Source: Podarcis vaucheri (taxonomy: Eukaryota). From it: a DNA stretch of 64,000 nt. The notes beneath the pieces were generated by a model. The model saw only the letters and a list, made by a program, of their open reading frames with translations, made no database searches and was not told where the DNA came from. The DNA is taken from NCBI GenBank assembly GCA_965113315.1, contig OZ220365.1, one strand, 5' to 3'. Positions 3,698-47,229 of the stretch are shown in pieces; position 1 is the first letter of the stretch, and every line of letters starts with the position of its first letter. The translations under genes were made by a program, and so were the position numbers.

Positions 3698-3841
3698 CTT
3701 GTGCCCAGTAATTTCTCGAGAGTTTCTATCCACAAGTCCCTCTGCAAGAAATGTTGTGGCATCGGCAATGTAGAACTGAGTTGGAAGCCTTCCAAACGAA
3801 GGAACAAAAGTGAACCTCAGAAATTCAGATTCTGAAGGAAC
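3698..3841 (-). CDS. MLIP: MLIP (muscular LMNA-interacting protein) exon-2 equivalent: VPSESEFLRFTFVPSFGRLPTQFYIADATTFLAEGLVDRNSREITGHK
   Basis: 144 nt, tgtag| ... |gtaggg, phase 0/0. FTFVP..RLPT motif matches recalled human MLIP (LIFTFVPTVRRLPTHTQLADTSKFL); synteny with LRRC1. Confidence 0.9.
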
Positions 3842-28404: not shown

Positions 28405-28410
28405 TTTATT
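28405..28410 (-). promoter_or_regulatory. Polyadenylation signal AATAAA overlapping the stop codon of the unassigned gene
   Basis: Minus strand reads CCT TAA TAA ATT. Confidence 0.5.
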
Positions 28411-28561
28411 AAGGGGGGTAAAAAGCATTGTTTAAACAGTCTGAATAGAGGTGGCCTTCTGAACTGTCCGTCTCCTCAGGCTCAAAGTCATCAGGGTCTT
28501 GCGCTAACTGGTCCGTGTCTTCGTCTGAAGTGGAAGGGCGTGTTAGGATGATTCGAGGTAT
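28409..28561 (-). CDS. Terminal exon of an unassigned gene: IPRIILTRPSTSDEDTDQLAQDPDDFEPEETDSSEGHLYSDCLNNAFYPP*
   Basis: Long polypyrimidine tract ending ccaag|, phase 0, 50 codons plus TAA; AATAAA overlaps the stop; acidic protein-like composition with retained CpGs. Confidence 0.7.
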   Translation of the reverse strand: MPRIILTRPSTSDEDTDQLAQDPDDFEPEETDSSEGHLYSDCLNNAFYPP

Positions 28562-29159: not shown

Positions 29160-29298
29160 CAGTGGCGTAGCGTGGGTTCTCAGCACCCGGGCCAAGGCAA
29201 GTAATTTGCGCCCCCTAACCCGTGGATTTTAGCACTCGAGTCTCTTCCGCGCCCCCCCCAGATGTTGCGCCAGGTGCACCCCCCACGCTACGCCACTG
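29160..29298. mobile_element. hAT MITE (CAGTGGCGTAG family), TSD not matched
   Basis: Same TIRs and body as 7507-7654. Confidence 0.8.
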
Positions 29299-29315
29299 CT
29301 CCCACCACAAGTCTT

Positions 29316-29453
29316 CAGGACAGCCATACGAAGGCTGGCGCGGGGAGAAGGTCTCTCCGCCCCACCGCCAGGCTTCGGAGCAGCCTTCCGAAGGCTGGCG
29401 GCGGGAGGAGGTCTCTCCGCCCCACCGCCAGGCTTCGGAGCAGCCTTCCGAAG
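29316..29453. repeat. GC-rich 60-bp tandem repeat, about 2.3 units
   Basis: cgaaggctggcg..ggag.aggtctctccgcccaccgccaggcttcggagcagccttc repeated at a 60-nt period. Confidence 0.85.
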
Positions 29454-29768
29454 CGGGGGTGGGAGAAGAAGCAGAATGTTAACTAATTCTAACTATTGGT
29501 AAATAGTATTCATTCTCCAAAGTCGATGATGCATTTGAAACCTTCTGACAAGAGCCCAGGCTAACACTGACATCTGGTGGGTTGTTTTTAATTCAGTACA
29601 AGAACCAGACAGATAACTTACCATTCATGGGTAGGTGGGTATAAATAAAAAGAACAGGGGTTTTTTTCTTCTGGGGAGGGGAGATTAAGCTATATTTTAC
29701 CAAAACATAATAGTAACACCTCTTCAGACACTATTAATGCATAAATATCTTCCTCCATCATTACTTAC

Positions 29769-29864
29769 TGTTATAACATGATTTACTGTCTGGAATGGTC
29801 CACTTTTGGAGGGCATCTCAACAGGGCCAGAATCAGGTGTGCTGGGTTCTGATATAATGGCATC
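29769..29864 (-). CDS. Unassigned gene exon: DAIISEPSTPDSGPVEMPSKSGPFQTVNHVIT
   Basis: tctttttctttttaag| ... ACA|gtaagt, 96 nt, phase 0/0, open. Confidence 0.68.
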
Positions 29865-30666: not shown

Positions 30667-30744
30667 CTCCGCAACTTTGTCTTCAGATTGTACCCCAGCC
30701 AAGTCAAGTGGGCCATCTTTGGACACATGTGCTATTAAGATTCC
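30667..30744 (-). CDS. Unassigned gene candidate exon: GILIAHVSKDGPLDLAGVQSEDKVAE
   Basis: tttctccccag| ... GAG|gtatag, 78 nt, phase 0/0, open. Confidence 0.45.
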
Positions 30745-31019: not shown

Positions 31020-31642
31020 CTGCCCCAAGAGCAAGGAGCAATTGTGAAATGAACAGGTGTGATACTTGCATTAGCATAGAAGCAAGTAGAGTCACCTTGA
31101 ATCAAGGTGGGAAATGATACTGGTAATGGCATTTCCAACATATGGGCTTTGTATACAAACAAACAAACAAATATTATTTTAGTCATCCCTCAAGAAGTGG
31201 CAATTCATGTGATTATTCTGAGGTTCAGCATAAGCTAATCTTTCTGCTTTTCTTATTAAGACAGGCTGCCATGTAATGACTTCCAATGAGACAATGGCAA
31301 GACAGGAGGACGGCTGTTTTGGTCTCTCACAACAAAGAATTAGTAGTTGGAAAATGTGTGAGTAATGAAATGCACCTCATCATTTTCTTTACATGAAGAT
31401 GAGCCCTTTCCACCAGCAATGCTAATACCAAGACTCCCCATTTGACTGCACACAGTAATCGTTATCTGGAAGAGAATTGTAGTTCATATTGAATAGGCAG
31501 TTAACAAGCAAACACAACACTTATTCATTATTATTAGACAAGCAACAAGTAATGAAACTCATGCATGACACACACACATGGAAAATGCTGTTTCGTTCAA
31601 AATGAACAGAGATCTCAGCAGTGCCTGTGCTGCAGTAATTAC

Positions 31643-32897: not shown

Positions 32898-33152
32898 CTT
32901 CAAGGGTGACTGTGTTGTATCTGCAGCTCCTGGGATCTGCTCCTTGCTTTCTTTTGAAAACCTGTTGCCATCCGTCGGGAAGCTGTTTGCAGCTGCAACT
33001 GGAACCTGTGGTTTGCTGTTGGCCACTGGAAAGGGTTTTGACTTGGTTGCCACTTTTTGCCTTTCCTGTTGAAAAGTGACTCTAGCATTTCTTTGATCTC
33101 GAAGGTTGTCTCCAGAGTCAAAGAGACTCCCAGAGAATTTGGATATAGGCTC
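32898..33152 (-). CDS. Unassigned gene exon: EPISKFSGSLFDSGDNLRDQRNARVTFQQERQK...EQIPGAADTTQSPLK
   Basis: gtttgtttggttaaatttgcacag| ... AAG|gtaacc, 255 nt, phase 0/0, 85 open codons. Confidence 0.68.
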
Positions 33153-33930: not shown

Positions 33931-34137
33931 ATCCTCATCAGGATCCTCCAGCTCCTCGGCTTCTTGTTCGGGGCTGATCCGCCCTTCCTTCCGTTTTTCA
34001 TTGGACGAGTTGAATTTGTACAGACTGCACCCTTGGACATTCTCCTTTCCCTTCAAAGAGCCCCAGCGAGAACCCTGGGAATTCCAGTTATGACTGCCAT
34101 ATAGCTTAGGAGACTTGGGAAGCCATTTGACAGAGTC
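33931..34137 (-). CDS. Unassigned gene exon: DSVKWLPKSPKLYGSHNWNSQGSRWGSLKGKENVQGCSLYKFNSSNEKRKEGRISPEQEAEELEDPDED
   Basis: cttttgctcttccatgcag| ... GAT|gtaagt, 207 nt, phase 0/0, 69 open codons. Confidence 0.68.
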
Positions 34138-35148
34138 CTGCATGGAAGAGCAAAAGCACAAGAGTTTAATTCAGCACAGAGTTCAGGCACTCGAAAAGGA
34201 TGCCTGCTAATTGGACACAAGCTAGAATAGATGACTTCAAGTTTGCCAGGCATCCAGTCAAGCACAGGCTTATCGGGTGTGTTGCGAAGTCAGCCAGTCA
34301 TTGGCTGTGGGAAATGAATGGAGTCACTATCTGATGACAAAAAGGTTGGACAATAGTGAGCAACTTAGAAGGTGCTGTTGCCTGCCAGAACAATAGGAGG
34401 CAGGGGAACACACACAGACATGCACTTTCATCAGTAGCTATTGGTAAACTCTTATTTTGTTGGACAGAGAGATGCCATGCAGAGATGAGACTATCCAGTA
34501 ACTTGGGCTATCTGCCCCATCTCAAGGCTTGTTTACCCTACCCTTCCCATGTGCTCTATCCCTCCCCATCATTCACACAATGCATAAATGGAAACATAAG
34601 TTTGGATGTTTCCATCCACAATATGTGAAAAGGGGGTGCGGGTTGCAGTGGCATGGATGAGCTCAAGGGAACGACAACACACCTTCCCAGATGCAGACAT
34701 GTCAGTCTTCCTGTCCCCAAGAAGACACCTGATCTTAAAACCAATCTACCAAATTTGTCAAAGTTTCATCTTAAATGTTTTGATACTTCCGGCAATCAAA
34801 CTGTACAAGAGCTATGGACTTTGCAACAAAGCTCAGCTTCTTCACAAACCTCTTGAACCTTTATTAGCCTTACAGGACGGATTAGATCAAAAAGAGTTGA
34901 AAAAGTAACTTCTAAGTTACTTTTGCCTCTGATGACAAATGTGCTTGGAAATTCATAAGAAACACCTGCTATCAAAGGGCTTATCAACTATGGTAGACTT
35001 AATAGTCTATTGGGCCATATCTGGTGCCATTCGTGATGACTGCCTAAAACATCCAGATGATAAAGACTAAGGTAGAACAACATATTTCAGGAGCATTCAT
35101 TTGTTTCTCCTCCTATAAAGCTCTGTACACCTTGGACCCATAACTTAC

Positions 35149-44339: not shown

Positions 44340-44498
<159 letters not shown>

Positions 44499-46962: not shown

Positions 46963-47229
<267 letters not shown>

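Follow-up and report, generated by a model that had tools for sequence, protein, structure and literature searches.

A PxIxIT-like motif in the terminal exon of a predicted long LRRC1/Lano isoform of Podarcis vaucheri, a candidate calcineurin docking site

A stretch of 64,000 nucleotides from Podarcis vaucheri (contig OZ220365.1 of assembly GCA_965113315.1; called the window below) contains a short exon whose translation opens with PRIILT, a hexapeptide resembling the PxIxIT motifs through which calcineurin is docked. An earlier note had proposed that this is such a docking site, carried by an unassigned protein encoded next to MLIP. The locus thus raises two questions: may the motif dock calcineurin, and which protein carries it?

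Terminal exon T6 and its splicing

The exon, referred to here as T6, lies on the minus strand, which the earlier note had left unspecified. Its translation from 28561 to 28409 comprises 50 codons and a stop; it opens IPRIILTRPSTSDED, with PRIILT followed by an acidic stretch as had been described, and it ends AFYPP-stop. The layout is that of a PxIxIT-like motif, an acidic linker and a conserved AFYPP end, and a pyrimidine-rich tract ending in AG is located directly 5′ of the exon. The following features are found at T6.

28409..28561, minus strand: T6, terminal coding exon of the predicted LRRC1 long tail; spliced from T5, and the C-terminus of the homologues listed
28541..28561, minus strand: I(−1) and core PRIILT, predicted calcineurin A docking strand (from conservation and a model on the NIR strand)
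28517..28540, minus strand: RPSTSDED flank with Ser at PxIxIT position 9 and three S/T-x-x-D/E sites, read from the sequence
28406..28411, minus strand: predicted AATAAA polyadenylation-type signal, read directly and overlapping the T6 stop codon

A protein search with the exon found T6 as a single copy in its own genome. Pfam scanning of T6 revealed no family, and an ESM Atlas search with T6 gave no usable match. The AFYPP end (window 28409-28444, minus strand) is another island of conservation, present from rays to birds but lost in frogs. A FEM1B Psi-Pro C-degron was considered for this end and rejected: Pro is the last residue in 115 of 140 distinct tails, and an aromatic residue or His at −15 to −22 is present in only 54 of those and absent in the lizard.

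Taken as a bare pattern, PRIILT is unremarkable. P.I.[ILVF]T occurs seven times in the six frames of the window and the broad PxIxIT pattern 118 times; in the same six frames, neither strict PxIxIT, because of the Leu at position 5, nor a pattern with I/V required at that position matches the PRIILT site. When T6 was shuffled 100,000 times, P[^PG]I[^PG][ILV]T arose in 0.27% of cases and the loose published pattern in 10.6%. What raises the site above chance is splicing and conservation.

Gene order in the window, all on the minus strand, is LRRC1, tail exons T1–T6 and MLIP. The LRR exons of LRRC1 run from 62690 down to the classic last exon at 44498-44340, and MLIP exons are located at 3841 and about 1830. 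Splicing was followed in contigs from four of 24 listed public runs, whose RNA nature is guessed (18 of the 24 are guessed to be RNA and none is recorded as such). The tail exons upstream of T6 are:

33931..34137, minus strand: T1, containing the SPEQEAEE island; the stand-alone model P0002 begins with an in-frame ATG at 34143
32898..33152, minus strand: T2, poorly conserved linker; joint 33151>33930 in three of four runs
31376..31465, minus strand: T3, first piece of a truncated PDZ (LGISIAGG loop); joint 31465>32898 in three of four runs, skipped in some models
30667..30744, minus strand: T4, second piece of the truncated PDZ; joint 29863>30666 in three of four runs
29769..29864, minus strand: T5, phase 0, ending HVIT directly before the motif

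All six tail exons are in phase 0 and have AG/GT ends. T6 exists and is spliced to this tail: the T5–T6 joint, 28561>29769 (CT..AC), is present in contigs from all four guessed-RNA runs, and the T4–T5, T2–T3 and T1–T2 joints in three of the four each. All tail joints seen are GT-AG; the T3–T4 joint is absent among those listed for the four runs.

Several other elements of the tail region deserve mention. The SPEQEAEE island of T1 (about 33945-33980, minus strand), possibly a phosphorylation site, is kept from rays to marsupials inside an otherwise variable exon. T3 (31376-31465, minus strand) is 90-96% identical among reptiles and birds despite the truncation of its PDZ and its frequent skipping, and may have acquired a new role. 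The T5–T6 intron contains, at 29290-29460 of the window, a GC-rich tandem duplication of about 57 bases in two to three copies beside interspersed repeats. A PP1-type RVxF motif (RVTF) in T2 was discarded because the Anolis, bird, turtle and crocodilian sequences read do not contain it.

The conserved block and predicted calcineurin docking

Conservation was measured in a set of 197 family proteins, 170 of which have the downstream anchor and yield 146 distinct tails; most of the 27 dropped end before T6, and a few carry the motif but failed the filter. P1, I3 and T6 of the motif are invariant in all 146 tails, and position −1 is always I, L or V. Position 5 is L in 145 tails and V in one, position 2 is R in 142, Q in three and W in one, and position 4 is I in 144 with V and T once each. 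Core changes are thus confined to positions 2 and 4, save for one L-to-V at 5; the electric ray form is PRITVT. In a 48-row alignment conservation is 0.98 for the core, 0.94 for the next eight residues, 0.49 for the acidic linker, 0.76 for the last twelve residues and 0.35-0.62 for the upstream exons, the figures for the block being upper bounds since the searches favour block carriers and the downstream anchor fixes positions 8-13. The comparison of PRIILT with its flanks that the earlier note had called for therefore comes out in two ways: the motif is well above the acidic linker and the upstream exons, but not above the PSTSDED that follows, which is equally conserved. It follows that the conserved unit is about 15 residues long rather than six.

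Relative to the lizard long form, identity within this 15-residue block is 73-100% in all 16 species compared (93-100% in 14 bony vertebrates, 73% in two rays) and exceeds that of the LRR domain in most of them. A chance pattern match in a non-functional stretch, for which the 7 to 118 occurrences of loose patterns in the window would speak, is scarcely credible: T6 is spliced and near-invariant from rays to marsupials, and such conservation refutes this explanation.

PRIILT and the variants checked match the published core P[^PG][FILV][^PG][FILV][^PG] which, in the accessible part of its source, permits Leu at position 5 and is matched by 21,791 human peptides, almost all of them taken as non-binders (10.1101/632547). 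A strict Ile or Val at position 5 is not what the family has, Leu occupying it in 145 of 146 tails. According to the available portion of published bead data, a hydrophobic residue at −1, R/K at 2 and phospho-S/T at 9 raise calcineurin binding, with position-9 phosphorylation increasing the affinity of PVIVIT, though not of every scaffold (PMC6728138). In 12 of the 30 supplementary files of the same work, PVIVIT I5L gave 6631 versus 15998 at 1000 nM and 653 versus 2388 at 125 nM, i.e., Leu at 5 weakens binding about 2.4 to 3.7-fold, and the I5L peptide still binds in an NIR-dependent manner (192 with the NIR mutant).

The flanks of the T6 motif agree with the measured affinity enhancers, with Ile at −1, Arg at 2 and Ser at 9. 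Pro at 8 and phospho-Thr at 9 are reported for C16orf74 and CABIN1, and position-9 phosphorylation raises affinity in C16orf74 (PMC12612047, accessible part). T6 likewise has Pro at 8 and, at 9, a Ser within three S/T-x-x-D/E sites. Such sites are the CK2 consensus. The ray variant PRITVT differs at one place from the CABIN1 core PEITVT, as given in the accessible part of PMC12612047. The composite LxVPxIxIT, searched as L-x-[VLI]-P, does not occur in most species, where the L place is I or M; L is found there only in frogs and a few others, and the residues leading into the core proline read ITIP or MTIP in most species and LKIP in frogs.

Positions 2, 4 and 8-14 vary hardly more than the pocket residues do, a constancy beyond what docking alone requires. 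The conserved block may thus bind a partner other than calcineurin, for example SUMO through a CK2-phosphorylated SIM, or a partner that reads all 15 residues; for this, too, would speak the Leu that is fixed where Ile would bind calcineurin better, and the invariance of the whole block rather than of its pocket residues only. A phospho-SIM consists of a hydrophobic core plus serines and acids phosphorylated by CK2, as described in the accessible part of PMC12295420, and IIL-T followed by S-T-S-D-E-D has a similar appearance; no SIM consensus was found in the available part of PMC4276917. We nevertheless consider this explanation unlikely. The SIM core patterns that we used were a four-residue hydrophobic core and a VIDLT-type core; the block resembles the phospho-SIM of PIAS1, yet neither core occurs in any of the six variants tested, while the PxIxIT pattern is present in six of six. 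In addition, an invariant Pro and the Arg at position 2 are not SIM features, and ray PRITVT loses a hydrophobic residue and yet comes nearer to CABIN1.

In an AlphaFold2 model of the long form the LRR domain is folded and residues 467-764 are under pLDDT 50, which suggests, with low confidence serving as a proxy, that the motif region is disordered and accessible. Strands assigned to 718-721 (the motif) and 639-642 (the PDZ remnant) have pLDDT near 30 and were discounted as not meaningful. A complex of a 38-residue tail piece of P0002 with the catalytic domain of a metagenome calcineurin A was modelled using ESMFold2 and no alignments. The metagenome sequence was used as a stand-in because the vertebrate calcineurin A sequences read were without the NIR exon or had internal breaks; it is of invertebrate type and agrees with sturgeon at 16 of its 17 interface residues and with mouse lemur at the remaining one. 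L004 (G000:C34:34214709-34218053) and L007/L019 (G000:C33) are intronless, frameshifted phosphatase copies resembling processed pseudogenes, whose parent genes we take to be PP6-type and PP1-type.

The complex scored 0.87 in three runs, compared with 0.01 for the best of three controls, among which there was no motif mutant. The runs share at least 60% of contacts, and partner pLDDT is at least 51. Among microbial pairs, 51 of 78 solved and 2 of 108 mismatched ones attained the score mark, compared with 71 of 105 and 2 of 126 among eukaryotic pairs, a calibration not made on peptides. In the model, peptide residues 213-223, which hold the motif, contact calcineurin residues 325-333 plus L273, M288, F297 and P298; the motif runs along the N-V-M-N-I-R-Q-F-N strand, with P1 near F297. 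We take this strand to be the known PxIxIT docking groove, from recall and from the NIR mutant used in the papers. Modelling of the peptide with calcineurin A, as the earlier note had suggested, thus puts the peptide into the known groove. Resemblance to solved complexes can, however, give the same outcome and probably accounts for the high score. Since PxIxIT–calcineurin complexes have already been solved, the model shows likeness rather than binding. The reading of PRIILT as a PxIxIT motif gains support from conservation and from the docking model, and binding itself is predicted.

Carriers of the motif and the history of the tail

A search with T6 matched 145 proteins among 150 candidates. 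Of the 120 matches listed, Podarcis proteins are the closest (96-98%). Those with names come from lizards, birds, turtles, crocodilians, frogs, bony fishes and marsupials and are annotated as LRRC1 isoforms (about 610-935 residues; e.g., isoform X1/X2), as stand-alone “protein scribble homolog” or LOC models, or under PDZ-based misnomers. The protein is therefore not unassigned, as had been thought: in databases it is LRRC1 isoform X1/X2, or a stand-alone “protein scribble homolog”/LOC gene.

Out of 210 motif-bearing proteins fetched, 58 contain the LRRC1 LRR/LAPSD half and 152 are not joined to it. The 58 joined models come from lizards, birds, turtles, a crocodile, frogs, marsupials and teleosts and use two recurring junctions; in one of them the donor lies inside the classic last exon of LRRC1, in the other the exon before it is joined directly:

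44340..44498, minus strand: classic last LRRC1 exon, ending RVTTSV-stop; an internal phase-0 GT donor after 44379 is used by many long models
47023..47159, minus strand: LRRC1 exon before the classic last one, ending ATG|GT; the Podarcis isoform X1/X2 models splice it directly to T1

The splice sites for an in-frame LRRC1-to-tail connection are present in the window, with phase-0 GT donors after 47023 and 44379 and a phase-0 AG acceptor before 34137. Among the joints listed for the four guessed-RNA runs there is none from the internal donor (44379), and LRRC1 exon 47023..47159 was outside the stretch compared. In run X1, a spliced T2–T1 contig of depth 38.3 ends at 34138 and shares an overlap of exactly 30 letters with an intronic contig of depth 16.2, from which we infer a second upstream neighbour of T1. 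The break at 34138 would fit an exon ending in TG and is compatible with the LRRC1 exon ending in ATG. The LRRC1-to-tail joint is thus predicted by annotation pipelines and hinted at by one contig branch. The classic last exon, which is skipped in 24 of the 58 long models, presumably encodes LAPSDb, needed for basolateral retention, and long models lacking it might localise differently.

The docking site could be real and yet have as its main carrier a separate protein of ~260-320 residues, made from an internal promoter upstream of T1, with the LRRC1-joined forms being minor read-through. The 152 unjoined carriers, many of them named as LOC or “scribble homolog” genes of their own, fit such an arrangement, as do three unnamed proteins nearly identical to a chicken model, which span all tail exons and begin upstream of T1 without LRRC1. 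In addition, contigs from three of the four runs (X1, X2 and X9) continue past T1 into the intron 5′ of it, one of these contigs having the T2–T1 splice, and an in-frame ATG is located 6 bases 5′ of T1. The N-termini of stand-alone models, however, vary between species and resemble translated intron, the intron-covering contigs may be unspliced RNA, the two LRRC1 junctions recur in many species, and the tail has a Scribble-like PDZ, as expected of one ancestral LAP gene. We therefore judge a separate main carrier rather unlikely, if worth keeping in view; the ATG at 34143 together with the T1-to-intron contigs in three of four runs makes a tail-only product, as such, plausible.

The tail is indeed encoded next to MLIP, as the earlier note had it, and the connection is mostly one of adjacency, save for two bird models that splice on into an MLIP exon:

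3699..3841, minus strand: MLIP exon with a phase-0 acceptor, into which two bird gene models splice tail exons, skipping T6; 3′ end approximate

In these models (P0124 and P0126), T5 or T2 is spliced into the MLIP exon (29769 to 3841 of the window, minus strand); the splice is in frame here too. It may be real read-through or a modelling error. That the tail exons are alternative 5′ exons of MLIP and T6 a premature last exon, as these two in-frame models would have it, is very improbable: such fusions make up only two of the 58 matches to a search with the wombat tail, T6 has the strongest conservation, its own stop and an AATAAA, and the PDZ links the tail to the LAP family. The suggestion that inclusion of this one exon switches the docking site on or off has to be recast. 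T6 is terminal and not a cassette, so a switch, which is possible, would be a last-exon choice between the short LRRC1 end, the long tail and, in the two bird models, continuation into MLIP.

T3 and T4 encode the first half of a PDZ. When nine proteins were scanned with Pfam PF00595, the paddlefish and gar tails contained a whole PDZ (67-68 bits), the turtle tail scored 24.2 bits but over positions 9-51 only, and the Sceloporus tail was below the cut-off (19.7 versus 23.2 bits, positions 8-50 of 81); among these nine, no match was found in the Podarcis stand-alone model P0002, wombat, frog and alligator. The best single-domain PDB match of the paddlefish tail PDZ is Scribble (E 2.5e-31, compared with 4.5e-13 for Erbin), and we take the Scribble entries matched to be PDZ1. 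Skate and electric ray have a full-length PDZ-like stretch plus the motif, as read by eye. Judged from these matches, the tail PDZ is of the Scribble type; rays and bony fishes have it whole, reptiles and birds have it in truncated form, and in frogs and marsupials it was not detected.

The wombat-tail search returned its 58 matches from 881 candidates, none of them placental. A tail-end profile search found 71 proteins, none recognisable as SCRIB itself, and among them a mouse prediction of 83 residues, EDL26348.1, in which PRIILT is kept and the flank has decayed; it could be a relic or a surviving microprotein. The tail was likely lost in placental mammals, as their sequences suggest, leaving a decayed trace. 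Decayed-looking copies of T6 are P0315 (mouse EDL26348.1) and the unnamed P0306, P0310 and P0317; PRIILT is kept in P0315, P0306 and P0317, the flank is altered and the stop has moved.

We hold it to be fairly probable that T6 ends a six-exon tail belonging to a long form of LRRC1/Lano, that IPRIILT[R/H]PS docks calcineurin A as a PxIxIT strand, and that long Lano serves as a cortical anchor. The LRR/LAPSD half, which the accessible part of PMC6605793 links to the cortex, would target the protein to the membrane or cortex, and the motif would hold calcineurin there, docking as a strand against its V-M-N-I-R-Q edge as modelled. Leu at position 5 would keep basal affinity moderate, and phosphorylation of the invariant Ser at 9, a CK2-type site, would raise it, as in C16orf74 and CABIN1. 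By the choice of last exon, the long tail would exchange the short TTSV end of LRRC1, presumably a PDZ-ligand-type end, for a PDZ (in fishes) or a PDZ remnant together with the docking site. An internal start probably also gives rise to a shorter product with the tail alone, which would act as a free calcineurin binder or competitor.

A wider scenario can be drawn more tentatively, and we give it somewhat less than an even chance. Ancestral jawed-vertebrate Lano would have been a LAP protein with one PDZ, and its long isoform would have brought calcineurin to the basolateral cortex by means of a PxIxIT site tuned by phosphorylation. Stepwise decay of the PDZ would have followed, with the docking site unchanged over some 450 million years before the tail decayed in placental mammals. 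Last-exon choice would select between a MAGUK-binding and a calcineurin-anchoring form.

Relation to known proteins

The T6 motif is likely a new PxIxIT site on an undescribed Lano isoform. The literature searched, to which subscription papers, including the original LAP phylogeny, and bioRxiv supplements did not belong, describes neither a long or PDZ-bearing Lano nor a Lano–calcineurin link. The isoform itself is already present in automated annotation, which, together with the apparent placental decay, limits the weight of the finding. Should the site bind, zebrafish-, frog- and chicken-type models would have a Scribble-family polarity scaffold linked directly to calcineurin, with a splice switch and a phosphorylation switch; such a link between polarity scaffold and calcium signalling could not have been found by work on mouse and human. 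The tail would also document, with dates, how a domain was lost step by step following the SCRIB/LRRC1 duplication.

Human LRRC1/Lano, in its 524-residue form, is the product of the same gene: its LRR and LAPSD exons and classic last exon are present in the window, and long isoforms in RefSeq and UniRef end in T6. Lano has been described as the only LAP protein without a PDZ (PMC12731447, PMC6234904, accessible parts). That description seems true only of the short Lano studied in placental mammals. In the long form the TTSV end is absent, and a further ~290 residues contain the PxIxIT-like site and a PDZ or PDZ remnant. LRRC1 is a paralogue of Scribble, and its tail has a single PDZ, truncated in reptiles and birds, compared with four in SCRIB.

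The docking site itself is most like those of Calcimembrin/C16orf74 and CABIN1, where a PxIx[I/V/L]T core is likewise preceded by a hydrophobic residue at −1 and followed by Pro at 8 and, at 9, a residue that can be phosphorylated (PMC12612047, accessible part). T6 differs from them in its Leu at 5, in the acidic surroundings of its Ser at 9, which stand in place of PPTP, and in having no true LxVP overlap; its site would reside on an LRR scaffold, whereas that of C16orf74 is on a lipidated microprotein. In function, long Lano would resemble AKAP79/AKAP5, to which it has no sequence relation; in the available part of PMC12612047, this scaffold is suggested to keep calcineurin at membranes by way of a single tuned site of the PxIxIT type.
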